Of a DNA stretch of 64,000 nucleotides, positions 8,976 through 26,338 are shown piece after piece. The translations under genes were made by a program, and so were the position numbers. Origin of the DNA: an uncultured delta proteobacterium (GTDB lineage Bacteria > Desulfobacterota > Binatia > UBA9968); the NCBI GenBank assembly GCA_963771465.1, contig CAVYTU010000006.1, positions 1-64,000 of the forward strand. Direction: 5' to 3'. How positions within the stretch are numbered: position 1 is the first letter of the stretch; each line of letters starts with the position of its first letter. The notes under the pieces were generated by a model that was given only the letters and a program-made list of their open reading frames with translations, did no database searches and had not been told where the DNA came from.

Positions 8976-10496
8976 TTAACTTTGACTGGTGTGAGTAGCA
9001 GGCGGCGACGATCCCCTAAATTTTCTCCACCAAGGCGTGACTGCCGGCAGGATGAAAAAGAAAATCGCCAAGGTAGTGATGGCGCCGGCGATGGGCCGGG
9101 TGAAAAAAATCGCAAGCGATCCCTGCGAGAGGATCAAGCTTTGGCGCAGCGCCGTTTCAGCTAGGTCGCCGAGAACCAGCGCCAGCACGAGCGGAGCGAT
9201 CGGATAATCGAGCTTTTTGAACATATAGCCGATGACACCGAATAATAGCATGTACCAGATATCGAGCATGCTGTTGTGCACGGCGAAGGAGCCGATGGCG
9301 CAGACGACGATGATGAGCGGCGTCAAGATCGCGAAAGGGATACGCAAAATTGCCGCGAAGAGCGGCACTAATGCCAGTACCATAACCACGCCGATCACGT
9401 TACCGGTGTACATACTGGCAATGAGTCCCCAGACGAATTCAGGTTTTTCCTTGAACAGCAGCGGGCCAGGTTGCAGACCCCAAATAATCAGGCCCCCGAG
9501 CATGACCGCTGCGGTGGGCGAGCCGGGGATTCCCAACGTGATCATCGGCAGGATCGCCGCGACTCCCGCCGAGTGAGCGGCGGTTTCCGGTGCGATGACT
9601 CCTTCGATCTCGCCTTTACCGAAGCGATCGGCATTTTTTGAAAACCTTTTGGCGAACGCATAACTCATGAACGACGCCGGCGTGGCGCCGCCGGGCTTGA
9701 AGCCCATCCAGAAACCGATAAAGGAACTGCGCACAAAGGTGCGCCAGTAGCGCGGCAAAATCTTCCAGGTGTCTAAGACGACGCGAAATTTCATGCCGGT
9801 CTTGGAGCCTTTAAAGCTCAGTCCCTCTTCGACGCTGAGCAAAATTTCGCCGATGCCGAACAGGCCGATGACCGCGATGATAAAATCGAAACCCTTCATG
9901 AGGCCGGTGAAGCCAAAGGTGAGGCGCAGCTGGCCTGTGACGATATCGAGCCCGACGGTGGCGAGAATGAAGCCGAGGAGAATCGCCACGAGAGTCTTGA
10001 ACGGGTTGCCACCGCCAAGGCCGACGAAACTGGAAAAGGTAAGTAGTTGAATGGCGAAGAATTCCGCAGGGCCGAACTTCAGCGCGATCTCAGCGAGCAC
10101 GGGCGCGAAGAAGGTGATCAGCACGATCGAAAAAAACGCGCCGATAAACGATGAGGTAAACGCCGCCGTGAGCGCCTGACCGCCTTCGCCTTGGCGCGCC
10201 ATTGGATAGCCATCGAAAGTCGTCGCGACGGACCAAGGCTCGCCGGGAATATTAAACAGAATCGAAGTTATGGCGCCGCCAAACAGCGCGCCCCAATAGA
10301 TCGAAGTGAGCAAAATGATCGCCGAGGTCGGTGGCATCGTGAAAGTCACCGGCAAAAGGATTGCGACGCCATTGGCGCCGCCCAGGCCGGGCAGGACGCC
10401 GATGATCGTGCCGAGGAAAATACCGAGCACAGCCACGGAAAGATTGAACGGCGTGAGGGCGATCTGAAAGCCGAGGAGTATATTCTCGAAGCCCAT
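8976..10496 (-). CDS. tctA: Tripartite tricarboxylate transporter permease TctA
   Basis: GVLPGLG, NIPGEP, GIPGS and GLQPGPLLF signatures; 506 aa polytopic protein. Confidence 0.93.
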   Translation of the reverse strand: MGFENILLGFQIALTPFNLSVAVLGIFLGTIIGVLPGLGGANGVAILLPVTFTMPPTSAIILLTSIYWGALFGGAITSILFNIPGEPWSVATTFDGYPMARQGEGGQALTAAFTSSFIGAFFSIVLITFFAPVLAEIALKFGPAEFFAIQLLTFSSFVGLGGGNPFKTLVAILLGFILATVGLDIVTGQLRLTFGFTGLMKGFDFIIAVIGLFGIGEILLSVEEGLSFKGSKTGMKFRVVLDTWKILPRYWRTFVRSSFIGFWMGFKPGGATPASFMSYAFAKRFSKNADRFGKGEIEGVIAPETAAHSAGVAAILPMITLGIPGSPTAAVMLGGLIIWGLQPGPLLFKEKPEFVWGLIASMYTGNVIGVVMVLALVPLFAAILRIPFAILTPLIIVVCAIGSFAVHNSMLDIWYMLLFGVIGYMFKKLDYPIAPLVLALVLGDLAETALRQSLILSQGSLAIFFTRPIAGAITTLAIFFFILPAVTPWWRKFRGSSPPATHTSQS

Positions 10497-10499
10497 GAA

Positions 10500-10961
10500 T
10501 CAATAGCCTAACCACGCCTCCAGCGGTCCCTTCGGCATGGGAACGTAAAACCATTTTTCGAATACGAAAAAAATGGTCACTGGGATTCCGAAAGCGAGCA
10601 GCACAACCGCCGACCAAGTATGGCGCCCGACCCAGCGCATATAGAAACCGATATAGAGCGCCGAAGAAACGTAGAGGCCGACCCAGTGGATCAGCATGAC
10701 CGATGCGGTGGCGGGCCAGAGCACTTTGAATACTGGACCGACTTTTTCTCGGGTGACAAAGGACCGACCCGTCGGCTTGCGCGCCGCTTGGACGATGATG
10801 ACGGCGCAAGACAACACCATGATGAGCGCAAGCCAAAATGGGAAGAAGCCGCTGTTGGGACCGTCGCTGCCCCAACCGGCGCCGAGTCGCAGGGCGTCGG
10901 CTAAGACTAAGCCGCCGAGGAGAATGAGAATCGAAGCGGTAACGATGTCGGCCACGCGCAT
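10500..10961 (-). CDS. tctB: Tripartite tricarboxylate transporter TctB
   Basis: Four TM segments, GPNSGFFP motif, PMPKG tail, located between tctC and tctA. Confidence 0.88.
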   Translation of the reverse strand: MRVADIVTASILILLGGLVLADALRLGAGWGSDGPNSGFFPFWLALIMVLSCAVIIVQAARKPTGRSFVTREKVGPVFKVLWPATASVMLIHWVGLYVSSALYIGFYMRWVGRHTWSAVVLLAFGIPVTIFFVFEKWFYVPMPKGPLEAWLGY

Positions 10962-10962
10962 G

Positions 10963-11961
10963 CTATTTTTTGAGCAATCCTTCTTTGCCCATCAGCTCGC
11001 GGTGGAGCTTTTCGTTCTCATCGACCCACTTGACGTACTCCGCGCCCACGGCAAAGGCCGGCTTAAGCGCGCCGTCAGTGAGATATTTTTTAAACTCCGC
11101 AGTGTCGTAGACTTTCTTTAAAAAGTCGGTATGCCACTGCACCGCTTCCTTGGGAATATCCGGCGCGCCGAAAATCCCGCGCAGCATTACGTAGTGAATG
11201 TCCGCGTTGAGAGCTTCTTTGATCGTCGGGATCGCTTTCCAATCGCCTTCACCGATGCGCGCGGTGTCGAAAACCCCCAGAGGTCTCACGCGTCCGGTTT
11301 TCCAATGGCTAATGCATTCGGCGGGATTATTCACCGTCGAATCGATGTGCTTGCCGACCAGATTGACGCACACCTCACCGCCGCCTTTGAACGGCAAGAA
11401 AGTGAACTTGACTCCAAGCGCCTGCTCCAACTGAATCGTGATGATTTGATCTTCTTGCGCTGAGCCGGTGCCGCCCATTTTCATGCGGTTACCGCCGCCG
11501 CTCCGTTCTTTTACGGCGGCGAGGTATTCTTTTGCAGTCTTATAGGGCGATTCGGCATTGACCCACAGAATGAATTGGTCCAGCGCCATGCGGGCCAGCG
11601 GCGTTAGATCGCGCCAATTGAATGGCACGCCGGTATGAAGCGGTGTCGTGAAAAGGTTTGAGAGCGTAATGATCATGACATGGGGATCGCCTTTTTTCTC
11701 CTTGGCGTAGAGAAACCCTTCGGCGCCGGCGCCGCCGGATTTGTTAACCGCGATCAGTGGGCGCGGCGAGAGCTTGTGCTTTTCGGCGATACCTCCAATC
11801 AGTCGCGCCATCTGATCGGCGCCGCCGCCGGTGCCCGCCGGGATGACGAACTCTATGGGTCGGGTTGGCTCCCAGGCGGTAGCGGCGCCAGCAACTCCCA
11901 CAGTAAGTGGCCAGATCACAAACGCCGCGATGAATTGGCGAGAGCAGATGATTCTAGTCAT
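10963..11961 (-). CDS. tctC: Tripartite tricarboxylate transporter substrate-binding protein (TctC/Bug)
   Basis: Signal peptide; PTRPIEFVIPAGTGGGAD, NKSGGAGAEG and PFKGGGE motifs. Start set to the ATG at 11961. Confidence 0.9.
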   Translation of the reverse strand: MTRIICSRQFIAAFVIWPLTVGVAGAATAWEPTRPIEFVIPAGTGGGADQMARLIGGIAEKHKLSPRPLIAVNKSGGAGAEGFLYAKEKKGDPHVMIITLSNLFTTPLHTGVPFNWRDLTPLARMALDQFILWVNAESPYKTAKEYLAAVKERSGGGNRMKMGGTGSAQEDQIITIQLEQALGVKFTFLPFKGGGEVCVNLVGKHIDSTVNNPAECISHWKTGRVRPLGVFDTARIGEGDWKAIPTIKEALNADIHYVMLRGIFGAPDIPKEAVQWHTDFLKKVYDTAEFKKYLTDGALKPAFAVGAEYVKWVDENEKLHRELMGKEGLLKK

Positions 11962-12154
11962 AAGTCTATCCTTATTGATCTGATTAAAAATTTTGCCATC
12001 ATGCACTATGATCACGCTTCTGCGAGCAGCCGACATTGTGGAGCACTGCTTTTGACGCCGAACGTCGAGGCGAAATTCATTTCGCTACAGCTCTTGGAGC
12101 AGCGCTTTACTAGAGTCGCTGCCACCCTGTCAAGAGCCTTCATCGCGAAAGCGC

Positions 12155-12196
12155 TTGACAAGCAGGAAACGAGTTCGCTAAAAACTGGTCAGACCA
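12155..12196 (+). promoter_or_regulatory. Sigma70-like promoter with overlapping FadR-family operator TGGTCAGACCA
   Basis: TTGACA at 12155, TAAAAA at 12179, and palindrome TGGT-N3-ACCA at 12186..12196 (PdhR/LldR-type box), directly upstream of the FadR gene. Confidence 0.7.
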
Positions 12197-12215
12197 CCAG
12201 ACAGCTGGACCCAAC

Positions 12216-12956
12216 ATGCTACGGGCGATAAAAAAAACCAGGATTCACGAAGAGGTATTCAGCCAGATCCGAGAGCTGATCAAAGACGGCAGGTTTAAAG
12301 CCCGCGATCAACTTCCGTCTGAGCGCGAATTGGCCGAAACTTTTAAAGTCAGCCGGACGTCGGTGCGGGAGGCGCTTCGCGCGCTCGAGAGCCAGGGATT
12401 GATCGTCAGCCGGACGGGCATGGGCAATTTCGTCGTGGACCTGCCGGTGGAATCGTTGGTTGGGCCGCTGGCGCGCTTGCTGATCGACGAGAAAAAAGCG
12501 CTCGCCGACGTGTTTGAGATGCGCAAGCTGATCGAGCCGCATATCGCCGCTTTGGCGGCGCAACGAGCCACTAGGAACGACGTAGCGCAGTTGAAAAGGA
12601 TCGTTGCTAAGCAGATCGACGCTGTGAGCAGCGGCATGACGGGAGTCGAGGCGGACGCGGAGTTTCATTTCACGATTGGACGGGCCACGCGGAATCAGGC
12701 GCTGCAAAAGCTGGTCTCCGGTTTGATGGAGCTATTAAGTCGAAGCCGTGAGGATTCGCTGCAAACCGAGTTGCGCAGGAATAGGTCCGTCGACGCGCAT
12801 CGGAGGATTATCGCCGCGATCGAAAGGCACGACAAAAACAGGGCGCGCGGCGAAATGCTGCGCCACATCGAGCAGGTCGAAGAAAGTGTAGCCGGGATGC
12901 AGCGAGGCGTCGGAGTTAGTAAAAAGAAGCTTCATCCCGCCGGCAGAGCCGCATGA
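12216..12956 (+). CDS. FadR/GntR family transcriptional regulator
   Basis: LPSERELAETFKVSRTSVREAL wHTH plus an FCD domain (DAEFH, H...MLRHI). Confidence 0.95.
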   Translation: MLRAIKKTRIHEEVFSQIRELIKDGRFKARDQLPSERELAETFKVSRTSVREALRALESQGLIVSRTGMGNFVVDLPVESLVGPLARLLIDEKKALADVFEMRKLIEPHIAALAAQRATRNDVAQLKRIVAKQIDAVSSGMTGVEADAEFHFTIGRATRNQALQKLVSGLMELLSRSREDSLQTELRRNRSVDAHRRIIAAIERHDKNRARGEMLRHIEQVEESVAGMQRGVGVSKKKLHPAGRAA

Positions 12957-13169
12957 TTTCACAAATTTCGGTCCGCCCGAAACTTGATGCTCTCGAAGCA
13001 TGCGTCGCAATTTCATACGCGCTTCAGAAGCCTTGTCAGGTGTCTAATCGATCACAGAGCGTCGCCTCCGCGTGGCGTGGCCGGGTCATGATGCAAGGAG
13101 CAATGTTCTAATACGCCGGCGCAGTGGTGCCGACTCAATTCAGCGAACAAATTCGAGAAAGAGGAAACC

Positions 13170-14885
13170 ATGGCCACACTGACAAATTCCGAAAAAAAAG
13201 AAGCCACCGGCCCAGTCATCTCTGGCGGACATCTGGTCGCCAAGGCGCTCAAGAACGAAGGCGTCGAGGTGATCTGGACGCTGTGCGGCGGACACATTAT
13301 CGACATCTACGACGGCTGCATCGACGAGGGCATCAAGATCATCGACGTGCGCCATGAGCAAGTCGCGGCCCACGCGGCGGACGGTTACTCGCGCCAGAGC
13401 GGTAAGATCGGCTGCGTGGTGACCACCGCGGGGCCGGGCACGACCAATGCGATGACTGGCATCGCCAATGCGTTTCGCGCCGAGAGTCCGCTGGTGATGA
13501 TCGGCGGGCAGGGCGCGCTGTCGCAGCATAAGATGGGTTCGCTGCAAGATTTACCCCACGTCGACATCATGGCGCCGATCACCAAATTCGCCGCCAGCGT
13601 GCCGCACACCGAGCGAGTCGCCGACATGGTGTCCATGGCATTTCGCGAAGCGGTCAATGGCGCGCCAGGTCCGAGCTATCTGGAAATCCCGCGCGACGTG
13701 CTCGACGCCAAGGTGCCGCTGGAACGCGCGCGCATTCCCAAGCCTGGGGCGTACCGCGCCTCGACAAAATCCATCGGTGATCCGCGGGACATCGAAAAGC
13801 TCGCCGATCTTTTAGTCAATTCGGAGCGGCCCTGCGCGCTGTTCGGCACGCAGGTGTGGACTTCGCGCGGCCACGATGACGCCGTATCGCTTTGCCGCGC
13901 GCTTAATATTCCCGGCTATATGAACGGTTCGTCCCGCGGCATCTTCGCGCCCGGCGATCCCCATGGCTTTAACCGCACGCGCAGCTTGGCTTTCGACAAG
14001 GCCGATGTGATTGTCATCGTCGGTTGTCCATTCGATTTCCGCTTGGGCTATGGCCGGCGGCTCCGTTCCGATGCCACCGTGGTGCAGATCGACCTCGACT
14101 ATCGCAACGTCGGCAAGAACCGCGATATCTCGCTTGGCCTGGTCGGCGACTGCGGCGCGATTCTCAAAGCCGTCGAGCAGGCTGCCACCGGCCGCGCGTC
14201 GAAAGGCAACGCGCAGCGCGCCGAGTGGATGAAAGATCTGCGCGCCGCGGAAGCCAAGGCGTACGAAAAATTATTACCGTCATTCAAATCGGAATCGACG
14301 CCGATCAATCCTTATCGCGTCGCCTACGAGATCAACGAATTTTTGACCGACAACACGGTTTACATCGGCGACGGCGGCGATGTGGTGACGATTACCGCGA
14401 CGGCCGTCGAGCCGCGCAAGGCGGGCAATTGGATGGACCCCGGCCCGCTCGGCACCTTGGGCGTCGGCACTTCGTTCTCGATGGCGACCAAGTTCGTCCA
14501 TCCGCAAAAAGAAGTTTTGTGCTACTACGGCGACGGTTCCTTCGGCATGACCGCCTGGGATATGGAAACCGCGCAGCGCTTCAAGCTGCCGTACATGGCG
14601 GTGATCGGCAATAACTCGGCGATGAATCAGATCCGCTGCGGCCAGATCGGCAAGTACGGTCCGGAGCGCGGCTGCGTCGGCAATAAACTGGGCGACGTCG
14701 ATTTCGAAAAATTCGCTGAGTGTTTCAGCGGCTGGGGTATCGCCGTGCGCGAGCCGAGCCAGATCCGTCCGGCGCTGGAAAAAGCCCGTGAGCGCGTCGC
14801 CGGCGGACAGTGCGCCATCGTCAACATCTGGGTCGACATCAATGAGTATGCGCCGGGCACTAGAGCGCAGACGATGTATAAGTAA
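13170..14885 (+). CDS. oxc: ThDP-dependent oxalyl-CoA decarboxylase / 2-hydroxyacyl-CoA lyase family enzyme
   Basis: DVRHEQVAAHAADGY, DPGPLGTLGVG and the GDGSFG...NN ThDP motif; adjacent to frc. Confidence 0.75.
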   Translation: MATLTNSEKKEATGPVISGGHLVAKALKNEGVEVIWTLCGGHIIDIYDGCIDEGIKIIDVRHEQVAAHAADGYSRQSGKIGCVVTTAGPGTTNAMTGIANAFRAESPLVMIGGQGALSQHKMGSLQDLPHVDIMAPITKFAASVPHTERVADMVSMAFREAVNGAPGPSYLEIPRDVLDAKVPLERARIPKPGAYRASTKSIGDPRDIEKLADLLVNSERPCALFGTQVWTSRGHDDAVSLCRALNIPGYMNGSSRGIFAPGDPHGFNRTRSLAFDKADVIVIVGCPFDFRLGYGRRLRSDATVVQIDLDYRNVGKNRDISLGLVGDCGAILKAVEQAATGRASKGNAQRAEWMKDLRAAEAKAYEKLLPSFKSESTPINPYRVAYEINEFLTDNTVYIGDGGDVVTITATAVEPRKAGNWMDPGPLGTLGVGTSFSMATKFVHPQKEVLCYYGDGSFGMTAWDMETAQRFKLPYMAVIGNNSAMNQIRCGQIGKYGPERGCVGNKLGDVDFEKFAECFSGWGIAVREPSQIRPALEKARERVAGGQCAIVNIWVDINEYAPGTRAQTMYK

Positions 14886-14899
14886 AGCGGTGAAGAGAT

Positions 14900-15010
14900 T
14901 TAACCCAAAGAACGCAAAAGCGCAAAAGCAGAAGGATTCACCACGCGCTGAGATCAAGTGTGTTTTTATATATCTTTTCTTCTCGGTGTACTGTGCGCCT
15001 CCGTGGTGAG
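14900..15010. repeat. Degenerate intergenic 9-mer-type inverted repeat element
   Basis: cgcaaaag cgcaaaag, and the arms caccacg ... ccgtggtg. A similar acaaag-periodic tract lies at 16301..16360. Confidence 0.45.
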
Positions 15011-15050
15011 ATTTCTTCTTCCTAGATTCATGTAAGGAGAAAACTATTCG

Positions 15051-16292
15051 ATGGGCAAAGCGCTCGATGGAATTCGTATTTTAGACATGACCCACGTGCA
15101 GTCGGGGCCGACCTGCACGCAGATTTTGGCGTGGTTCGGCGCCGACGTGATCAAGGTCGAACTGCCTGGACGTGGCGACATTACCCGCGGTCAGCTGCGC
15201 GACAAACCGAATGTCGACAGCCTCTATTTCACCATGCTCAACAGCAATAAGCGCAGCGTCACGATCAACACCAAGCATGAAAAGGGCAAAGAAGTGTTTC
15301 GCAAGTTGATCAATGCCTGCGACGTGATGGTGGAGAACTTCGCGCCCGGCGCTCTCGACCGGCAAGGATTTACTTGGGAGGTGATTCACGATCTCAACCC
15401 GCGGCTGATTTACGCATCGGTCAAAGGCTTCGGCCCCGGTCCCTATGAAGACTGCAAAGTTTACGAAAATATCGCGCAGTGCACCGGCGGCTCAGCGAGC
15501 ACAACGGGATTCGACGACGGCCCGCCGCTGGTCACCGGCGCACAGATCGGTGATTCGGGCACGGGCATTCACCTAGTCGCCGGTATTCTCGCCGCGCTTT
15601 TTCAGCGTGAGAAGAGCGGCCAAGGCCAGCGCGTTACCTGCGCCATGCAGGACACCGTGCTCAATCTATGTCGAGTGAAAATGCGCGATCAACAACGTTT
15701 GGCAGCCGGCCCGCTGATGGAATATCCGCAATATCCCAACGGCGTCTTTGGCGACGCGGTGCCGCGCGCCGGTAACGCTTCCGGTGGCGGCCAGCCGGGC
15801 TGGGCGGTGCGCACTAAAGGCGGCGGGCCCAACGATTACATCTACGTGATCATTCAGCCGCCTGGTTGGGAGCCGTTGATGAAGCTCTGCGGCCGACCCG
15901 AATTGATCACCGATGCCGAGTGGGCGACGCCGGAAAAGCGTTTGCCCAAACTGGACAAGTGTTTCGCGATCATCGAGCAGTGGGCGATGACCCTTGATAA
16001 GCTCGAAGTGATGCGCCGACTCAATGAGTTCGACGTGCCTTGCGGGCCGATCCTCGACATGGCCGAGATCGCCGCCGAGCAGTCGCTGCGCGACACCGGC
16101 ACCGTCGTCGAAGTCGATCATCCCAAGCGCGGGAAATTCTTAACCGTGGGCAATCCGATTAAGCTCTCCGATTCGCCGACTGAGATAAAACCGTCACCGC
16201 TATTGGGTGAGCACACCGATGAAATTTTAAAATCCATCGTCGGCTGGAGCGATGCGGAAATCGCCGCGGCGCGTAAAGAAGGCGCGGTTTGA
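15051..16292 (+). CDS. frc: Formyl-CoA:oxalate CoA-transferase
   Basis: [44 protein letters not shown] (catalytic Asp) and [13 protein letters not shown] (glycine loop). Confidence 0.95.
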
Positions 16293-16380
16293 AGAATGGG
16301 TACAAAGATCACAAAGTAGAAGATTCGGATTCGGAAAATTAGCCACAAAGAACGTAAAGAAAAATCGGAGTTATAACGAA

Positions 16381-16403
16381 AGGGCGGGTTTGCAACCCGC
16401 CCT
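16381..16403. repeat. REP-like hairpin AGGGCGGGTT-TGC-AACCCGCCCT
   Basis: Perfect 10-bp stem between frc and the ligase gene. Confidence 0.6.
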
Positions 16404-16441
16404 CTTGGTTTCCACCTAAGTAGTCCGAAGCAGCGGAGGGA

Positions 16442-18564
16442 ATGATGGACAAGAAGGTTGTGCGTACCCTCATCGACTCAGTCCGGAAGTCAGGCAGGCG
16501 CGCGCTGAACGCGCCGGAAGCCCAGCAGTTGTGCGATGCCTACGGTATTCCCACGCCGAAGCAGGCGTTGGCCAAGAGCGCGGCTGACGCTGCGAAAACG
16601 GCCGCGCGTTTGCGCTTTCCCGTCGTCCTCAAAATTGTTTCCGACGATATCCTGCATAAGACCGAAGCCGGCGGCGTCATCGTCGGACTGAAGACCGCAA
16701 GCGAGGTGAGACAGGCTTTCGAACGACTCGTCAAAAGCGCCAAGGCCTATAAGAAAAACCCCGCGATCCACGGCGTACAAGTGCAGCAGATGCTCACCGG
16801 CGGCCGAGAAGTGATGGTCGGTGCGATCAGCGATCCGAGCTTCGGCAAGCTGGTCGCCTTCGGTTTAGGCGGCGTGTTGGTCGAAGTGATGAAGGACATC
16901 ACCTTTCGCTTGGCACCGGCGAGCAGGAAAGACGCGCTGGCGATGCTCGATGGCGTGAGCGCGGCGGAACTCCTGCGCGGCGTGCGCGGCGCCAAGGGCG
17001 TCGACCGCGCGGCATTGGCCGACATCATCCAAAAAGTTTCCAAGCTGGTCAACGACTTTCCCGAGATTCTCGAAGTCGATTTGAATCCGATCTTCGCCAC
17101 GGACAAGGGTGCTCATGCCGTCGACGTTCGCATCGTCGTCGGCGAGCCGTTGCCGCAACGCCAACGTTTCACTCAGAGCGAAATTCTCGGCGCCATGCAA
17201 CGGATCATGAATCCGCGTTGCGTGGCGGTGATCGGCGCGTCGGCCGAAGACGGCAAGATCGGCAACTCGGTGATGAAAAATCTCATCAACGGCGGCTATG
17301 CCGGTAAAATTTATCCGATCCATCCCAAGGCCGAGGAAATCCTCGGACGCAAGGCTTATCCGAGCGTGCTCAACGTGCCGGAAGAAATTGACGTCGCGGT
17401 GTTCGCGATCCCGGCAAAATTTTGTGCCGGCGCGATGGAGGAGGTGGGACGCAAAAAAATTCCCGGCGCGGTGATGATTCCGTCCGGCTTTGCCGAGGTC
17501 GGCGAACAGGCTTTGCAGGATGAATTGCTCGGTGTCGCGCAGCGCCACAACGTGCGCATCATGGGGCCCAATATTTACGGATTCTATTATACGCCGCAAA
17601 GTCTTTGCGCGACTTTCTGCACTCCCTACGATGTCAAAGGCAAAGTGGCGCTGAGCTCGCAGTCGGGCGGCGTCGGCATGTCGATTGTCGGCTTCTCGCG
17701 CTCTACGCGCATGGGCGTGTCGGCGATTGTCGGCCTGGGCAACAAGTCCGATCTCGACGAAGACGATCTGTTGACCTACTTCGAGCAGGACGACAACACC
17801 CAGGTGATCGCCATGCATTGCGAAGATTTGAAAGATGGCCGGTCGTTCGCCGAAGTGGCGAGCCGGGTGTCGAAGAAAAAGCCGGTGGTGATGCTCAAGG
17901 CCGGACGAACGGCGCTGGGCGCGCGCGCCGCCGCGTCGCACACCGGCGCGCTGGCGGGCAACGACAAGATTTACGACGATGTGCTGCGCCAATGCGGCGT
18001 GATCCGCGCCAAGAGTTTAAATGACCTGCTACAATTCGCCCGCGGCCTGCAAGTGCTGCCGACGCCCCAGGGTGAAAATATCATCATCATTACCGGCGCC
18101 GGCGGCTCGGGAGTTTTGCTTTCAGACGCCTGCGTCGACAACGGCCTGTCGTTGATGAAAATGCCGCCGGATCTTGACGCCGGCTTCCGCAAATTCATCC
18201 CCCCTTCGGCGCCGCCGGCAATCCGGTCGACATCACCGGCGGCGAACCGCCGACAACCTACGCCAACACGATTCGCTACGCGCTCGCCGAGCCGCGCATT
18301 CATTCGCTCATTCTTGGCTACTGGCACACCATCATCACGCCGCCGATGGTATTCGCCAAACTCTGCGCCGAAGTCGTCGAGGAAGCGCGCGCCAAAGGCA
18401 TCGACAAGCCGGTGGTGGCATCGCTGGTCGGCGACGTACAGGTGGAAGAAGCGAGCGAATATCTCTACGAACGCGGCATCGTCGCCTATCCGTATACGAC
18501 GGAATTGCCAGTCGCCGTGCTCGGCGCGAAGTACAAATGGGCACGCGGCGCAGGAGTGTTATAG
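16442..18564 (+). CDS. ADP-forming acetate/acyl-CoA ligase (ATP-grasp domain first, CoA-binding/ligase domain second); 1-base frameshift in C-run 18199..18204
   Basis: LKIVSDDILHKTEAGGV, AVIGAS, GPN, SQSG and AASHTGALAG (phospho-His) motifs. Adding one C gives IPPFGAAGNPVDITGGEPP, in frame with ORF 18346..18564. Confidence 0.88.
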
Positions 18565-18743
18565 GAGAATCCGCATTCGCCAAGAAGATTCAGCACCGGA
18601 TAATTAACCGCAATGGGCGCAAAATAAATCCCATCGCGAGCTTTGGATCGTCGAACCAGGCCGAGTTCGAATTCACGAACGAACGTGATGAGAACCTGAT
18701 GATTGCATGATCCGTGGAAGAAGAGCCGCAACGCTAGCGTCGG

Positions 18744-19769
18744 TTACACCGAACTAGGCTCTCTTTGTTTCATATCAAAGGCTTGCGCCAGCAGTTCGTA
18801 GGAACGATGGCGCGGCGCCGGATCGTACGTCCATGTGACCACGACCAGCTCGTCGAGGTCTAAACTTTTCGCGAGTTCTTTCAATCGCGCGGCGACCTGC
18901 TCTGACGATCCAACGATTGCCTTGCGGTGCAACTTTTCGGCGATCGCCATCTCTGCGGAAGAATAGGTGCGAGCTGCGGCTTCCTCGGGAGAGGTTAGTG
19001 GCAGGCGGATGCCTAATTTGCGATCGATCATTGCCCGTTCGCGCGCCTTGAATTGGAACAGCGCTTCTTCTTCTGTATCGGCCGCCAGCGCCCAGACGCA
19101 GATTGTCGCCATCGGCTTGGGATTATTTTCACTCGGGCGATAGTTCTCCCGGTAAAGAGCGAGCGCTTGCTCGACGCCGGTACCTTCGCTGAAAAAATAT
19201 GCGAAGGCGTAGGGCAAGCTAAAATAGGCGGCGAGTTGAGCGCCGTAATCTGAACTACCGAGAATCCACATCTCTGGGCTTGTCGGTCCCGTTGGCTGGG
19301 CAACGACTTTGCTGAAGGGATGGCCTTCGGGCAGGGGAGTTCCCGACACCCAGTGTTGCAGCTCCTGGACTTGGCGGGGAAATTGGTCGTGAACGTTTTG
19401 CGGATTGGGATTGAGCGCGTAGGATGTCATCTGATCCGATCCGGGCGCGCGGCCAATTCCCAGATCGATTCTCCCTGGTGCGATGGCCTCCAGGACGCGG
19501 AACTGCTCAGCAACTTTCAGTGCTGAATAGTGCGGCAGCATGACGCCGGCGCTGCCGATACGGATGCGCGGCGTGGTGGCGGCGATCGCAGCCATCAGTA
19601 TCTCCGGCGCCGTGCCGACGATACTGCCGGAGTTATGGTGTTCCGACAACCAGTAGCGATGATAACCGAGCGCGTCGCAATGGCGCGCGAGCTCAAGCGT
19701 CTCACGTATCGCAGTGTCCTGGGTTCGACCCTTGGACGCGGTCGATTGATCGAGTACTGACAATCTCAT
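18744..19769 (-). CDS. Luciferase-like (LLM) flavin-dependent oxidoreductase
   Basis: LSVLDQS, RYWLSEHH, GSAGVMLPHYSALKVAEQF and GRIDLGIGRAPG motifs. Confidence 0.92.
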   Translation of the reverse strand: MRLSVLDQSTASKGRTQDTAIRETLELARHCDALGYHRYWLSEHHNSGSIVGTAPEILMAAIAATTPRIRIGSAGVMLPHYSALKVAEQFRVLEAIAPGRIDLGIGRAPGSDQMTSYALNPNPQNVHDQFPRQVQELQHWVSGTPLPEGHPFSKVVAQPTGPTSPEMWILGSSDYGAQLAAYFSLPYAFAYFFSEGTGVEQALALYRENYRPSENNPKPMATICVWALAADTEEEALFQFKARERAMIDRKLGIRLPLTSPEEAAARTYSSAEMAIAEKLHRKAIVGSSEQVAARLKELAKSLDLDELVVVTWTYDPAPRHRSYELLAQAFDMKQREPSSV

Positions 19770-19777
19770 GATAAACG

Positions 19778-20692
19778 TCAGCCCAACCGATCGCCGATTT
19801 TCAATTCAACTTGCTTCGCGAATTCCGCACCGTTGACCTTGGCGCCTTCGCCGCGCAGTCTCTTCACCGTCAGCGTGCCGCCATTCAGTGCGACAGTGAT
19901 TTCTTCTGCACCGATGCCGGTCACTTGTCCGGCTGGCGCTGAATTATTTCCAGATTGCAGACGGGCGTCGAAGATGCGCACCAACTTGCCGTTGTAAGTT
20001 GTGTGCGCTCCCGGTTGGGGGTCGCAACCGCGGATTAAGTTATAAACTTCTTGGGCCGGTTTGGACCAATCGATTTTGGCATGGGTATCATCGCATGGCG
20101 GATCGTAACTGGCTTTCGATGCGTCCTGGACGATGCGCGGCGGGTTTCCGGCGTTGATCAGGTCGATGGCTTCGCCCATCGCTTCCACGCCGAGGGGAAA
20201 AATTTTGTTGAAATACAACGAGCCGGTGGTGTCGTCGGGTTCGACCTTGACTTCTTTCTGCAAAAGGATCGGCCCGGTATCGATGCCTTTGTCGACCCAG
20301 AAAAGCGAAAGTCCGGTGACCGACTCGCCTCGAATCAAGGCCCAGTTGATGGCGCTCGCGCCGCGATACTTCGGCAAGAGCGAGGGATGAAAGCAGATGC
20401 TGCCGAGTTTGGGCACGCTGAAGACTTGTTGCGGCACGATCTGGGTGACGAACGCCAGGATCGCCAGATCGGCGTTTAAGGCGACGAATTCGTCGCACAC
20501 TTCCGGCGCTTTGAACGATTTATGCTGGCGCACCGGGATACCGAGCTGGATCGCTTTCTGTTTTAGCGGGTCGAATTTGCCGTTGGGCGGATCCATGGGG
20601 CAGTAGACCGCGACGACTTTCTCACCTTTGTCGAGAAGTTTATCGAGAGTTTTTTCGGCGAAAGCCGCCTGGCCGATGAGGATGATCCGCAT
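19778..20692 (-). CDS. Formyltransferase-fold protein resembling the ALDH1L1 10-formyl-THF hydrolase domain (Fmt-like)
   Basis: IGQAAF, CFHPSLLPKYRGASAINW, FWVDKGIDTG and LYFNKIFPLG motifs, plus an Fmt-type C-terminal domain. Confidence 0.85.
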   Translation of the reverse strand: MRIILIGQAAFAEKTLDKLLDKGEKVVAVYCPMDPPNGKFDPLKQKAIQLGIPVRQHKSFKAPEVCDEFVALNADLAILAFVTQIVPQQVFSVPKLGSICFHPSLLPKYRGASAINWALIRGESVTGLSLFWVDKGIDTGPILLQKEVKVEPDDTTGSLYFNKIFPLGVEAMGEAIDLINAGNPPRIVQDASKASYDPPCDDTHAKIDWSKPAQEVYNLIRGCDPQPGAHTTYNGKLVRIFDARLQSGNNSAPAGQVTGIGAEEITVALNGGTLTVKRLRGEGAKVNGAEFAKQVELKIGDRLG

Positions 20693-20759
20693 GTTGTCGA
20701 CCTCCAGTCTCGAACATCGTGCGCCTGGACGTTGGGCGCACGATCATGTCAATTACGCT

Positions 20760-21287
20760 TCAGCCGATGATCTTGTAATCGCCGCCCATGTAGCTCTTGC
20801 ATAGGTTCACGTAGGTGGACGACCCCATCTTGATCCAATGCAGCGCTTCGCCGGTAATCTCTTTTTTGACTTTGGCGGGCGCGCCGGCGGCGAGCACCCG
20901 AGGCGGGATGACGGTATGGGGCGTGACCACGCTGCCGGCGCCGATCAGCGCTTCTTCGCCGATCTCGACGTTTTCCAAAAGCACGACGTTCATGCCGATG
21001 ATGGCGCCGCGCTTGATCAGCGGGCCTTCCATGATCGCGCCGTGGCCGATGGTGCAATCTTCCCCGATGATCGTCGGCGCTTCACCGGAGTGGATCACGC
21101 AATTATCCTGCACGCTGGTGCGCGCGCCGATGACGATGGGGTTGGCGTTCTGATCGGATCGCAGCACCGCGCCCCACCAGATGCTCGCTTCGTCGCCGAC
21201 GGTAACGTCGCCGATAATCACGGCCGTGGGCGCGATGAATGCTGTTGGTGCGATGTTCGGTTTTTTGCCTTTGTACTCAATGATCAT
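20760..21287 (-). CDS. Gamma carbonic anhydrase / PaaY-CaiE-like left-handed beta-helix protein
   Basis: AFIAPTAVIIGDV, AVLRSD, VQDNCVIH, IGHGA, IGAGSVV and GAPAK motifs. Confidence 0.9.
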   Translation of the reverse strand: MIIEYKGKKPNIAPTAFIAPTAVIIGDVTVGDEASIWWGAVLRSDQNANPIVIGARTSVQDNCVIHSGEAPTIIGEDCTIGHGAIMEGPLIKRGAIIGMNVVLLENVEIGEEALIGAGSVVTPHTVIPPRVLAAGAPAKVKKEITGEALHWIKMGSSTYVNLCKSYMGGDYKIIG

Positions 21288-21482
21288 CGAGACGTGACCT
21301 CCAAGAAATGTTCGGCCACGATATGAGACGAGGCAACGGAAATCAAGATTGTGCCGTTCATTGGCTGCTGCATTGACTCAATCGGCGAAAGCCGTTAATG
21401 GTTTTGAAATTTCGTAACCCTCAGACGGTTTCTTCCCGCTTTTGCTGGCGAAGGAATCGGAAAAGAAGATTGGAGTTTGCCG

Positions 21483-22553
21483 ATGAGATTCAGTCCTGCG
21501 AGTTTTGCGGCTGCGATACTACTTGCAATCGGCATCGCCGTGCCGGCACAGGCGCAGAACCGTGAATCGATTTTGGCGGCGCTGGCGAATTTGCCCGCGG
21601 CGGAACGCCAAGCGCGCTTGATCGAGGGGGCAAAGAGGGAGAGCGGTTTGGTCTGGTACTCGAGCACGACGGCCGAGGATGCGCTGGCATTGACGAAAAA
21701 ATTTCACGAGCAGCATCCGTCGATCCAGATCAATCATTTTCGCTCGTCGAGCGAAAAGCTGCTCGAACGGATCCTCGCCGAGTCGCGCGCCAATGCGTTC
21801 AAAGCCGATATCGTCAGCCTGCCGGAACTCGAGCTTTCGCTGATGATCAAGCGCAAACTGTTGGCGCGTCATCAAGGCACGGAGAACGCGATCTATCCCG
21901 CGGAGTCTAAAGATCCGCGCGGCTATTGGACCGGGCTTTACACCTCAGCGTGGGTGGCGGCCTATAACACGAAATTGGTAGCGAAGGATCAGGTGCCGCG
22001 GACTTATAAAGATCTGCTCAACCCCAAGTGGAAAGGTAACATCGCGATGGATAACGAGCCCTACAGCTGGTACGTGATCTCGCTCGCCTACCTGGAGAAG
22101 CGCGACGGTAAAGAGGCGGCGGCGGACTACATGAAAAAACTCGCGGCCCAGCAGATCCAGTGGCGCAAAGGGCATTCTCTAATCGGCCAGCTGATGGCGG
22201 CGGGCGAGTTCCCCCTCGCAGCCGAGCTGCAAGTGCACACGGTCGAGCGCGCCAAAGCGACCGGCGCGCCGTTGGAATGGTCGGCGCTCGACGGCGTGAT
22301 TCCAATCTCCAGAGTTGGCGCCGCCGTGACCAACACGGGCAATAGCGTTTACACTTCGGCGCTCTTTTACGATTTCTTGCTGTCCCGCACCGGCATGGAA
22401 ACGATCCGCGCCAGCCGCCGCGTCCCGAGCCGACCCGACGTCACGGCGCCTTACTTAAAACCGTACAAGCTCTTGCCCTTCGAGCCTCAGGCGATCGACG
22501 ACTTCGACAAATACGTCGCGCTATTTCGAGATTCGTTCAAGCCGGGAAATTAG
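21483..22553 (+). CDS. ABC transporter substrate-binding protein (AfuA/FbpA-like family)
   Basis: Signal peptide; EGAKRESGLVWYSS, AYNTKLV and DLLNPKWKG motifs. Confidence 0.88.
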   Translation: MRFSPASFAAAILLAIGIAVPAQAQNRESILAALANLPAAERQARLIEGAKRESGLVWYSSTTAEDALALTKKFHEQHPSIQINHFRSSSEKLLERILAESRANAFKADIVSLPELELSLMIKRKLLARHQGTENAIYPAESKDPRGYWTGLYTSAWVAAYNTKLVAKDQVPRTYKDLLNPKWKGNIAMDNEPYSWYVISLAYLEKRDGKEAAADYMKKLAAQQIQWRKGHSLIGQLMAAGEFPLAAELQVHTVERAKATGAPLEWSALDGVIPISRVGAAVTNTGNSVYTSALFYDFLLSRTGMETIRASRRVPSRPDVTAPYLKPYKLLPFEPQAIDDFDKYVALFRDSFKPGN

Positions 22554-24161: not shown

Positions 24162-25391
24162 TTAGTTAAGGTCAAAAGTTTTTTCAGCCATTTGAGAAAT
24201 CTGTTGGCCAATGGCGAGCGATGCGGTGGCGCCGGGAGATGGCGCGTTGAGAACGTGAATGGCGCGTTGATTTTGCCGGATGATAAAGTCGTCGACCAGC
24301 GCGCCGCTGGCTGACACCGCTTGGGCGCGCACGCCGGCGCCGCCGGGCACGAGATCGTTCTCGACAATTTCGGGCAAAAGTTTTTGCAGCGCGCGTACGA
24401 AAGCTTTCTTACTCAAAGAACGGTAAAGCTCGCCAAAACCGGTCTGCCAATATTTGCCGGTGATCGCCCAGAAGCCCCTGAACGACAAGGTGCGCCACAA
24501 GTCGGGCAAATTTATGTCGCTGTGGCGGTAGCCTTCGCGCGCGTAAGCAAAGACGGCGTTGGGTCCAGCCTCGACGCCGCCGCGGGCCATACGAGTGAAG
24601 TGAACGCCCAAAAATGGAAAAGTCGGATCGGGCACCGGATAAATTAGATTTTTCACCAGGTATTCGCGCTCGGCGGCGATTTTATAGTACTCGCCGCGAA
24701 ACGGGATGATGCGATGCTCTTCGTCATCGCTTTGATTGCGCCCGATGCTTGTCAATTGCGCGAGGATATCCGACTGCAGCCCGCCGCAATTGATCAAATA
24801 TTTTGTCCGATAGTCGCCGCCGGAAGTTTGCAGGACGATTTCTGCGCCGCGGTCGAGGATGCCGACGACTCGCTGCGACAAGCGAATGTCGCCGTTGGCG
24901 TCGCGCACTTTGCCGGCGTAAGCCGCGGCGACTTTGCGGTAGTCGACGATGCCGGTTTCCGGCACGTAGAGCCCTTTGATGCCCGTGGCGTGGGGTTCGA
25001 TTTCCTTAAGCCGCTCCGGGCCGATAAGCGCCAAATCTTTTAGCCCGTTGGCTTCGCCGCGCCGTTGTAGCTCATCGAGGCGCGGCAATTCCGCTGCGCT
25101 GGTGGCGACCACGACTTTGCCGCAGATTTCATAGGGTACGTCGTGCGCGTCGCAAAAGGCCATGAGTTCTCTGCGGCCGCTGACGCAAAGCCGTGCTTTG
25201 AGCGATCCCGGCCGGTAGTAAAGGCCGGAATGAATCACGCCGCTGTTGTTGCCGGTCTGATGGCGCGCTAGCTCAGCTTCTTTTTCCAACAGCAGGAGTT
25301 TGACGTCGGCATGGGCGGCGGTGATTTTGAGCGCTGTTGCCAGGCCTAAAATGCCGCCGCCGATGATCGCCAAGTCATACTGGGAAGCCAT
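24162..25391 (-). CDS. lhgO: L-2-hydroxyglutarate oxidase
   Basis: GGGILG, HQTGNNSGVIHSGLYY, PFRGEYY, YPVPDPTFPFLGVHFT, GVRAQA and NAPSPGAT motifs. Confidence 0.93.
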   Translation of the reverse strand: MASQYDLAIIGGGILGLATALKITAAHADVKLLLLEKEAELARHQTGNNSGVIHSGLYYRPGSLKARLCVSGRRELMAFCDAHDVPYEICGKVVVATSAAELPRLDELQRRGEANGLKDLALIGPERLKEIEPHATGIKGLYVPETGIVDYRKVAAAYAGKVRDANGDIRLSQRVVGILDRGAEIVLQTSGGDYRTKYLINCGGLQSDILAQLTSIGRNQSDDEEHRIIPFRGEYYKIAAEREYLVKNLIYPVPDPTFPFLGVHFTRMARGGVEAGPNAVFAYAREGYRHSDINLPDLWRTLSFRGFWAITGKYWQTGFGELYRSLSKKAFVRALQKLLPEIVENDLVPGGAGVRAQAVSASGALVDDFIIRQNQRAIHVLNAPSPGATASLAIGQQISQMAEKTFDLN

Positions 25392-25402
25392 GCGCGGGTG
25401 CG

Positions 25403-26338
25403 TTACAGATGCAACAGTTGACGGGAATTGGTCTCGGTGAAGCGCTTCACCTGCTCGGGATTGGCTTGCAGTGAAATTGCATTGAACGCCTTATTGAGCG
25501 GGCCCAGGCCGCCGCAGTAGTCCGATCCGAAGACGATGTTACGCTCGCCCATCTTGGCGATCAAAAACGCCAAGGTCGGCGCATCCGAGCTGGCACAGTC
25601 AATCAAGAAATGCTCGAGAAAGATTTCAGAATACTTCTGCTCGCCCTTGGGGCCTTTGTGCTTCCAGAAAAAACGGTGCAGCAAAAGCGGAATGCCGCCG
25701 CCGGAGCTGCGGATGACGATCTTCAAATTCGGATAGCGGTCGAACACGCCGCTGGCGATCATGCGCAGGCAGCACTCGGCGACCTCGCCGTCGGACAAAA
25801 CCGCATAAGCGACGCCAGCGCCGCCGTCTTCGAGCCGCTTGAGCGACGGACTTTGGGCAGTTCCGGCGCCATGGAGGAAAATCGGCAGATTATGTTCGGA
25901 GATTTTTTTGTAAATCGGCTCCATGATCTCGGTGTCCACGAGCATTTCGCCGTCAACGTGGGGATAGAGCAGCACGGCGCGAAATCCTTGCGCCACGGTA
26001 CGCTCGATTTCCTTTACCGAGGCATCGATGTTTTTGAGCGATAAAGCGGTCATGCCGGCCAATCGATCTTTGTGCGGTAAGACTCGCTCAGCGAGGATAT
26101 CATTGGACGCGCGGACAATTTCCAGCGCCTGCTCCGGCGGCAATTGATCGGCGTAAACGCCGGCTCCTTGGCAGATCAACTGCAGGTCGATGCCGACCTC
26201 GTCCATTTCCTTCACCCGCTTGGATAAATCAGGCGAATCGTAGGCATCGATATGCGGACGCTTGCCCGTCAGTTGGTTGATTTTTTCGGCCACCTCAGGC
26301 GCAGTGTGGTGCGCATGCCAATCGATGATCATGGCCAT
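25403..26338 (-). CDS. Amidohydrolase family protein (Amidohydro_2)
   Basis: IIDWHAH, FLHG, SGVFDRYPNLK and FGSDY motifs. Confidence 0.88.
   Translation of the reverse strand: MAMIIDWHAHHTAPEVAEKINQLTGKRPHIDAYDSPDLSKRVKEMDEVGIDLQLICQGAGVYADQLPPEQALEIVRASNDILAERVLPHKDRLAGMTALSLKNIDASVKEIERTVAQGFRAVLLYPHVDGEMLVDTEIMEPIYKKISEHNLPIFLHGAGTAQSPSLKRLEDGGAGVAYAVLSDGEVAECCLRMIASGVFDRYPNLKIVIRSSGGGIPLLLHRFFWKHKGPKGEQKYSEIFLEHFLIDCASSDAPTLAFLIAKMGERNIVFGSDYCGGLGPLNKAFNAISLQANPEQVKRFTETNSRQLLHL

Follow-up and report, generated by a model that had tools for sequence, protein, structure and literature searches.

Formyl-CoA and 10-formyl-tetrahydrofolate (10-formyl-THF) are two activated forms of formate, the thioester holding somewhat more energy than the amide of formyl-folate. 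The formyl-CoA transferase Frc uses formyl-CoA and releases formate, and the formate–THF ligase Fhs turns formate into 10-formyl-THF. Excerpts of PMC4388273, PMC6802093 and PMC8748788 describe how 10-formyl-THF dehydrogenase (FDH, or ALDH1L1) moves a formyl group from folate N10 to a 4′-phosphopantetheine thiol, which mercaptoethanol replaces in reactions of the isolated N-terminal domain. According to passages of PMC11730586, LctF of the lactacystin pathway in Streptomyces lactacystinicus uses 10-formyl-THF and CoA to produce formyl-CoA in vitro, as detected by liquid chromatography–mass spectrometry, and passages of PMC6802093 propose that HypX’s N-terminal domain forms formyl-CoA from 10-formyl-THF on bound CoA. 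Here we analyse a 64,000-nucleotide stretch of DNA from an uncultured delta proteobacterium (GenBank assembly GCA_963771465.1, contig CAVYTU010000006.1, positions 1 to 64,000; hereafter the window) and a gene on its minus strand, at 19778–20692, that encodes a 304-amino-acid stand-alone formyltransferase (FT) resembling the FDH N-terminal domain. Family scores, motifs and trees make FT a candidate formyl-CoA:THF formyltransferase, and relatives of FT are encoded directly between frc and fhs in operons for oxalate metabolism.

The FT reading frame is open across all 304 residues, with a GGAGG box 8 nt 5′ of its ATG. Every motif quoted in the initial annotation of this gene can be read in the translation: LIGQ at residues 5–8, CFHPSLLPKYRGASAINW at residues 100–117, FWVDKGIDTG at residues 131–140, as well as EPDDTTGSLYFNKIFPLG and IRGCDPQPGA. 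Also as annotated, FT has a Cys at the position of the Asn in the N-x-H motif of methionyl-tRNA formyltransferase (Fmt), and no def gene lies near it. Pfam detects the two expected domains, Formyl_trans_N (2.3e-33) and Formyl_trans_C (1.3e-19), and the NCBIfam models for described relatives all fall short: fmt (TIGR00460) gives 167.4 bits, under its cut-off of 201.5; PurU (TIGR00655) gives 29.9 bits against 286; the ArnA and sugar N-formyltransferase models give 137.9 against 777 (NF005998) and 31 against 238 (NF005755); and PurN is far under its cut-off. Among all PDB sequences, the six top matches are N-terminal domains of FDH/ALDH1L1 (2e-62 to 3e-58), led by 4qpd (2e-62, 214 bits, 38–39% identity) and including human 2bw0 (4e-59), followed at a distance by Fmt (4e-44, 154 bits), ArnA (7e-30) and HypX (2e-13, 53 bits). 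An AlphaFold2 model built from a 42-row family alignment has a predicted local distance difference test score of 96, and its top Foldseek match is again 4qpd, the zebrafish FDH hydrolase domain (3.8e-35, template-modelling (TM) score 0.88). A search of the ESM Atlas with FT returned only clusters named ‘formyltransferase’. Judged by sequence, then, FT is nearer to the FDH N-terminal domain than to Fmt. It shares with that domain the best sequence match, the two-subdomain fold, the His/Ser/Asp triad, the folate contacts, signature residues and a tree clade. Unlike FDH, the 304-residue FT has no fused phosphopantetheine-binding (PP-binding) or aldehyde-dehydrogenase domain and neither adjoins it, so that its thiol partner would be a free molecule.

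To place FT among its relatives, we scanned 1.84 billion representative sequences with HMMER, which gave 1998 matches below 1e-30, and analysed the best 150 of these 1998. The 150 split cleanly by active-site motif, into sequences with I-[C/Q/..]-[Y/F]-H-P-S-L-L-P and sequences with x-N-[V/I/L]-H-[A/G]-S-L-L-P. Six long matches (634–920 amino acids) have FDH-type architecture, with an Aldedh domain in all six and a PP-binding domain detected in two (P0204 and P0185). Residues were mapped to FDH numbering (His106, Ser108, Asp142) by alignment against the PDB match. H102, S104, G136 and D138 are invariant in all 94 family rows and D134 is present in 92; by this alignment H102, S104 and D138, together with D134 and G136, correspond to the FDH catalytic and pterin-contact residues whose roles are listed in the available text of PMC4388273. 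Two residues ahead of the catalytic His, 13/13 Fmt-type rows have Asn, and the 94 family rows have C (56), Q (25), N (8) or G (2). Likewise, the signature Q8, P103, S113-A114 and F131-W132 is common to FT and the six full-length FDH sequences and absent from the 13 Fmt-type rows. In all three trees that we built (120, 114 and 165 rows; IQ-TREE quick searches, LG+G4 model, with the genome’s own Fmt as root), FT, all fetched loci and the six FDH N-terminal domains fall in one clade with Shimodaira–Hasegawa-like approximate likelihood-ratio (SH-aLRT) support of 98–100. This clade leaves out every Fmt-type row except P0143, an N-x-H sequence that occupies the basal position of the family clade in two of the three trees (supports 99 and 98); the attachment point of the FDH rows inside the clade varies between trees. 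The likeness to the ALDH1L1 N-terminal domain rather than Fmt proposed at the outset is thus borne out alike by PDB scores, the fmt cut-off, signature residues and phylogeny. By alignment and tree, FT is a member of a large family of stand-alone prokaryotic proteins whose closest grouping is with the N-terminal domains of full-length FDH. Matches from a Sinorhizobium chromid (36% identity over 260 residues; L114) have a very long branch and no annotation, and were set aside. As a sign of tRNA binding, C-terminal net charge (+1 in FT and +4 in the genome’s Fmt) is too weak a measure to separate the two proteins.

The clearest functional context comes from one branch of this family. A tblastn search of plasmid records identified a member with 45% identity, annotated fmt_2, on plasmid pLA6_002 (CP031587.1) of a cultured marine Paracoccaceae isolate, strain La 6. 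It lies on one strand in the order GntR (ydfH)–oxc–frc–FT–fhs–USP–TctC-like–TctB–TctA, with gaps of about 30–60 bp from GntR through fhs; sucCD and ppc are divergent upstream and glyA2 follows a few genes downstream. NCBIfam scores identify true Oxc (937 bits, cut-off 739), Frc (691, cut-off 504) and Fhs (937, cut-off 652) in this operon, and the FT member scores 132 bits, below the fmt cut-off. When metagenomes were scanned with the family alignment, 591 relatives emerged. Among the best 80 of these 591, a true Frc lies directly upstream on the same strand (55–181 bp) in 7 of the 55 loci that have 1300 bp or more of upstream sequence, and Fhs directly downstream (15–195 bp) in 9 of the 64 that have 700 bp or more of downstream sequence. 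Three contigs carry the full GntR–oxc–frc–FT–fhs set (L186, with oxc 1017, frc 702 and fhs 922 bits; L188; L193), two carry the operon with an oxc-like match that is partial, lying at the edge of the contig (L177, L183), and one carries frc–FT–fhs with oxc cut off (L181). A GntR gene heads these operons, as it does the operon neighbouring FT in the window. All oxc–frc–FT–fhs loci group together in a clade of 23 rows (SH-aLRT 98) that is distant from the window clade. The TctC- and TctA-like genes that follow the plasmid operon are 41% and 49–50% identical to those of the window. One of them, at 77734–78717 of CP031587.1, is annotated ‘argininosuccinate lyase’; it is probably a mis-named Tct/Bug-family binding protein, because it is 41% identical to the window TctC and is followed by TctB and TctA.

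Family members outside this clade are also encoded with enzymes that make or use CoA esters. One locus (L133) has a thiamine pyrophosphate (TPP) enzyme 70% identical to that of the window, followed by Frc and FT. In another (L101), a HACL-like TPP enzyme (PRK05858 568 bits, HACL 385 bits) shares a strand with the alpha subunit of an ADP-forming ligase that directly precedes FT, and a second, full-length ADP-forming ligase is divergent; a third locus (L107) reads AMP-forming ligase–FT–open reading frame (ORF)–TPP enzyme of the L101 type. An Frc-like transferase scoring 377 bits, under the cut-off, follows FT by 89 bp in L077. In L144 (3601–9715), an Frc-like transferase is separated by 5 bp from FT, which is followed by three HGD-D genes of the 2-hydroxyacyl-CoA dehydratase family; upstream, on the opposite strand, are two TPP enzymes. 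The association with a CoA ligase to which the initial annotation pointed recurs across the family, as ADP-forming CoA ligases are found repeatedly beside its members. In L151 (44–3910), monomeric isocitrate dehydrogenase, FT and, 15 bp later, FolD lie on one strand, directly linking a family member to enzymes of folate one-carbon (C1) interconversion.

Where it is encoded between frc and fhs, FT would most simply join formyl-CoA and 10-formyl-THF. We regard it as an even call that the window gene itself encodes a reversible formyl-CoA:THF formyltransferase, on the strength of its residues and relatives, and we hold the same function with greater confidence for the members in oxc–frc–FT–fhs operons. 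Gene linkage, family placement, fold and the residues for catalysis and folate contact are shown here; CoA as the acceptor, the direction in which flux runs, and conservation of the function between the operon clade and the window clade are what we infer. In the proposed mechanism, His102, Ser104 and Asp138 would activate the N10-formyl group as in FDH, and free CoA would serve as the pantetheine thiol partner (formyl-CoA + THF ↔ 10-formyl-THF + CoA). Oxc or a HACL-like TPP enzyme would make formyl-CoA, FT would move the formyl group into the folate pool at no cost in ATP, and the neighbouring ADP-forming ligase would re-activate the acid. Because the thioester is the richer in energy, transfer from formyl-CoA to folate should have a slight advantage, and the opposite direction would have to be pulled. 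Run in reverse, with Fhs supplying 10-formyl-THF from formate, FT could provide formyl-CoA that primes the Frc/Oxc cycle anew. Re-priming is inapplicable in the window’s own genome, which leaves only a drain to folate or a biosynthetic use, because Fhs (PF01268) was not found in this 6.9-Mb, 99.4%-complete assembly; with no Fhs, it follows that the genome would have no other entry of formate to folate. Fhs was likewise not found in seven of eight sampled genomes of the window’s class, and was detected in 209 of 301 genomes of a phylum sample. FT together with a CoA ligase was considered as a general substitute for Fhs and rejected: 33 of 41 family-positive genomes of the sample also carry Fhs, and the eight that do not are all of the window’s class.

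Each of the described systems overlaps with this proposal in part. LctF is likewise a stand-alone Fmt-like protein in the available text and carries out the reaction proposed for FT; it is biosynthetic and feeds a polyketide synthase loading module, whereas the setting of FT is catabolic or central C1 metabolism and the reverse direction may be favoured. HypX (HoxX), involved in CO ligand synthesis for NiFe hydrogenase, is described in excerpt as having a formyltransferase fold homologous to the FDH N-terminal domain, but it is fused to an enoyl-CoA-hydratase-like decarbonylase and the Ser of its triad is replaced. YfdE, an acetyl-CoA:oxalate CoA-transferase, also primes the Oxc/Frc cycle (passages of PMC3720670), a part that FT may play if run towards formyl-CoA, providing an initial CoA thioester that starts or replenishes the cycle; YfdE is a class III CoA-transferase of an unrelated family with different chemistry. 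The initial annotation had called the oxalate-to-C1 route undescribed, a word too strong for the reaction itself, because it has been printed for LctF and proposed for HypX in the excerpts cited. A catabolic role did not turn up: full-text searches of literature outside subscription journals and supplements gave no formyltransferase in oxalate or formyl-CoA catabolism and no oxc–frc–fmt-like–fhs operon. Within the partial texts that this search returned, no central-metabolic enzyme joins formyl-CoA and 10-formyl-THF, and biosynthetic LctF is the sole proven case.

In the window, FT is encoded beside, not within, an operon of the same general kind. On the plus strand, a GntR/FCD regulator assigned by Pfam (12216–12956) heads a TPP enzyme of the HACL/Oxc group (13170–14885), a formyl-CoA transferase (15051–16292) and an ADP-forming acyl-CoA ligase with fused ATP-grasp and CoA-binding domains (16442–18607), identified by domain and family scores; a Tct tripartite transporter (8976–12036) is divergent upstream on the minus strand, with TctA at 8976–10496, TctC at 10963–12036 and a small ORF at 10500–10961 between them. 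The initial annotation described the neighbouring genes as oxc and frc. The frc assignment holds, with 668.6 bits for TIGR03253 (cut-off 504.2) and 697.9 for NF003809 (cut-off 442). The oxc assignment does not: the TPP enzyme reaches none of the Oxc models (220.7 against 739.4 for TIGR03254, 232.6 against 557 for PRK09259) nor PRK05858 (426 against 587) or HACL (321 against 600), and no gene of this genome exceeds the Oxc cut-off. Its nearest solved relatives are 2-hydroxyacyl-CoA lyases/synthases (254 bits for 8vza, and 240 bits), with Oxc structures at 158–177 bits (2c31, 158), marking it as a likely formyl-CoA-forming lyase or decarboxylase other than canonical Oxc. The closest solved proteins to the ligase are ADP-forming 4-hydroxybutyrate– and 3-hydroxypropionate–CoA ligases. 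Together, the genes at 8976–18607 have the appearance of a module that handles a 2-hydroxy acid or oxalate, in which Frc would recycle CoA from formyl-CoA.

FT itself is flanked on the minus strand by a hexapeptide protein of the gamma-carbonic-anhydrase/PaaY/CaiE type (20760–21287, by family profile scores) and by LLM, an MsnO8-family luciferase-like oxidoreductase (18744–19769; TIGR03558 398 bits against a cut-off of 167; 175 bits to 4us5). The order is hexapeptide gene–FT–LLM, with gaps of 67 nt and 8 nt, and these genes converge on the TPP–Frc–ligase operon, so that the enzymes that make or use formyl-CoA are linked to FT here in convergent orientation only. This is the layout originally reported, with LLM lying between the two gene sets; the ligase also separates Frc from FT. 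Near-identical contigs from a soil metatranscriptome library span the hexapeptide/FT junction (20237–20900) and the FT/LLM junction (19373–19864), a hint that the three genes are co-transcribed; these are assembled contigs from one library in which DNA carry-over is possible, and three other runs hold small shares. A scan of 18400–21700 gave 3 promoter-like sites (1.4 expected) and 2 terminator-like sites (4.3 expected), none of either kind between the hexapeptide gene, FT and LLM. The close clade of the window comprises eight genome-contig loci in which FT is 80–91% identical to the window protein. LLM directly follows FT in all eight, and in a metagenome contig (L115); the hexapeptide gene precedes FT in all six with upstream sequence (L007–L012), and in L115 and L116. 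Frc and the ligase are present in one of the eight (L005), and the window, L005 and L115 share the same layout, with FT–LLM convergent to TPP–Frc–ligase.

Several observations weigh against a formyl-CoA:THF formyltransferase in the window. Here the frc cluster is on the opposite strand, and is found in three of eight well-flanked loci (the window, L005 and L115; not L006–L009 or L011). The constant partners of FT in this clade, the gamma-carbonic-anhydrase-like and LLM genes, lie outside the CoA model. The nearest sister loci (63–71% identity) pair FT with N-formylglutamate-amidohydrolase-family and ETF genes and not with CoA enzymes, and FT members of the operon clade are 46–54% identical to the window FT, so that the acceptor could differ between clades. 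In the phylum sample, 40 of the 41 family-positive genomes lack a true Frc. HypX, the described relative proposed to act on CoA, is distant from FT (53 bits, E ~2e-13, TM 0.72, 19% identity). Fmt chains superpose on the FT model with TM scores of 0.87–0.93 by Foldseek, as well as FDH does, and the fold therefore does not tell an FDH-like protein from Fmt. One clade of the family, 10 loci, lies in a gltX...prfA–prmC housekeeping setting.

Another possibility is that FT transfers formyl between folate and a different acceptor, perhaps varying by clade: the 4′-phosphopantetheine of a carrier protein, some other small thiol, or an amine (glutamate or a further amino compound, for instance). A gene of the N-formylglutamate-amidohydrolase family (PF05013) lies directly upstream of FT in the nearest sisters of the window clade (L070, L117 and L118) and in L128 and L176, a hint that these loci serve N-formyl-amide metabolism. 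This gene is on the same strand as FT (region 9212–10915 of L070), with a gap of 16–40 bp (600 bp in L128), and etfBA and IclR genes are nearby. FDH itself uses a carrier-domain thiol in the excerpts cited above, the related ArnA and sugar N-formyltransferases act on amines, and the kept partners in the window have no link to CoA. But no carrier-protein or aldehyde-dehydrogenase gene adjoins any locus examined, the 95-residue ORF found with some family members is ferredoxin-like and not acyl carrier protein (ACP)-like, and enzymes with formyl-CoA as substrate or product are the partners to which the family is linked most strongly and most often. Weighing these, we consider a different acceptor rather doubtful for the window gene, though the likeliest of the rival readings.

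It is unlikely that FT is merely a 10-formyl-THF hydrolase, equivalent to the FDH ‘hydrolase domain’ on its own, that frees formate and regenerates THF as PurU does. Excerpts of PMC4388273 report that the isolated FDH N-terminal domain hydrolyses 10-formyl-THF in vitro, all catalytic residues are retained in FT, and formate-related neighbours (Fhs, the PF05013 family) occur among the loci; the same excerpts describe the reaction as thiol-requiring, however. A hydrolase encoded directly before Fhs, as FT is in 10 loci, would set up an ATP-wasting cycle, and would not account for why CoA transferases, CoA ligases and TPP lyases of CoA esters are paired with FT again and again. The window’s genome has four Formyl_trans_N genes (canonical Fmt, PurN, PurU and FT), and because PurU is among them, it already encodes a plain hydrolase of this kind. 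FT as a second Fmt is very improbable: the public name, the shared Pfam domains and fold, and the clade beside gltX, prfA and prmC speak for it, but FT scores 167 against the equivalog cut-off of 201.5, lacks the Asn kept in every Fmt-type row, does not join the main group of Fmt-type rows in any of the three trees, and has as its paralogue a canonical fmt (motif CLNVHYSLLP) in a priA–def–fmt–rsmB cluster on a separate contig. FT is thus not the sole fmt of this genome, a separate def–fmt pair being just what the initial annotation had proposed to look for. Four family members scored on the NCBIfam fmt model (167, 163, 132 and 174 bits) are all under the cut-off, and the ‘methionyl-tRNA formyltransferase’ label that JGI, NCBI and Prokka-style records give to members (P0010–P0121, CP031587.1 fmt_2) is probably wrong for the whole family.

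How closely a formyl-CoA:THF formyltransferase would be tied to oxalate is a separate matter. The FT family is carried by 41 of the 301 genomes in the phylum sample and true Frc by the window’s genome only; with 41 carriers and a single Frc, the family is not oxalate-specific, and for the same reason genome-level co-occurrence of FT and Frc gives no signal either way within this phylum. At 490 bits for PRK05858, a threshold chosen with the data in view, the family is present in 8 of 13 genomes, and these are close kin; at the window’s score of 425 bits the model does not separate such enzymes from acetolactate synthases. Co-occurrence with oxc and frc, suggested at first for this gene, stands across the family, in the oxc–frc–FT–fhs operons, and is patchy and convergent in the window clade. 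Of the broader oxalate-to-C1 interpretation, the type of formyltransferase and the operon linkage have been upheld; a canonical oxc, novelty of the reaction and specificity for oxalate have not.

More tentatively, and at somewhat less than even probability, this widespread prokaryotic family may be a natural bridge between formyl-CoA and 10-formyl-THF, related to the ALDH1L1 N-terminal domain and perhaps its origin. If so, with Oxc, Frc and Fhs it would form an unrecognised oxalate-to-folate module, and the textbook oxalate pathway would be revised to include an ATP-free entry of oxalate carbon to folate or a priming route for Oxc/Frc. Sources of formyl-CoA would be oxalyl-CoA, 2-hydroxyacyl-CoA and possibly glyoxylate through 2-oxoacid:ferredoxin oxidoreductase, and anaerobes with Fhs would recover the energy of the formyl-CoA thioester as ATP (formyl-CoA → 10-formyl-THF → formate + ATP). 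In reverse, the enzyme would draw formyl-CoA from the Wood–Ljungdahl pool, making it a candidate source of the formyl donor in TPP-dependent acetone activation by sulfate reducers, which “remains elusive” and is probably a Wood–Ljungdahl C1 intermediate in passages of PMC7888143. For the formyl-CoA released by an actinobacterial lyase, passages of PMC7176365 assume that it “may be hydrolyzed”; the FT family could fill both gaps if those organisms carry it. It would also offer synthetic C1 pathways based on HACL and formyl-CoA elongation a folate-based source of formyl-CoA, and would give ALDH1L1 a simple origin, in an enzyme acting on the CoA thiol that was afterwards joined to a carrier domain with the same pantetheine arm. 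Because a cultured host exists (Paracoccaceae strain La 6, pLA6_002), the idea is directly testable.

The family is also linked to CoA-ester enzymes in further settings. One is an operon of SucC-like–ferredoxin-like–SucD-like–CitE/malyl-CoA-lyase-like–FT–GlcD–GlcD/E–GlcF/CCG genes, found in 23 loci, two of them duplicates (among L013–L036, L081–L102 and L120–L156; for example L021, 6200–15277), in a large clade of Thermodesulfobacteriota- and Nitrospirota-labelled metagenome-assembled genomes. A GntR gene is divergent and TRAP DctPQM genes often follow. The named genes all score just under their NCBIfam cut-offs, and the operon may serve glycolate or glyoxylate through a malyl-CoA-type route. 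The 95-residue ORF between the SucC- and SucD-like genes was considered as a carrier protein and rejected, being Cys-rich and ferredoxin-like. A second clade (L089, L100, L103 and L104; for example L104, 2564–11557) has DctP–DctQ–DctM, a 156-residue two-helix membrane protein and FT, with a four-subunit 2-oxoacid:ferredoxin oxidoreductase and a cytidylate-kinase-like/BON protein divergent; that this oxidoreductase uses glyoxylate, and so yields formyl-CoA, is pure speculation. FT is paired with an acyl-CoA dehydrogenase in Dehalococcoidia loci, and three loci that fit none of these patterns have as neighbours a gene of the phosphodiesterase family and another that weakly matches Sortilin-Vps10.

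In close relatives of the window, synteny extends beyond the hexapeptide–FT–LLM trio to the region at 24162–26338, which encodes an L-2-hydroxyglutarate oxidase (NF008726, 533 bits against a cut-off of 299) and an Amidohydro_2 protein, and to genes for an ABC-type binding protein and a DHA2 MFS transporter. This wider synteny may merely reflect shallow divergence.

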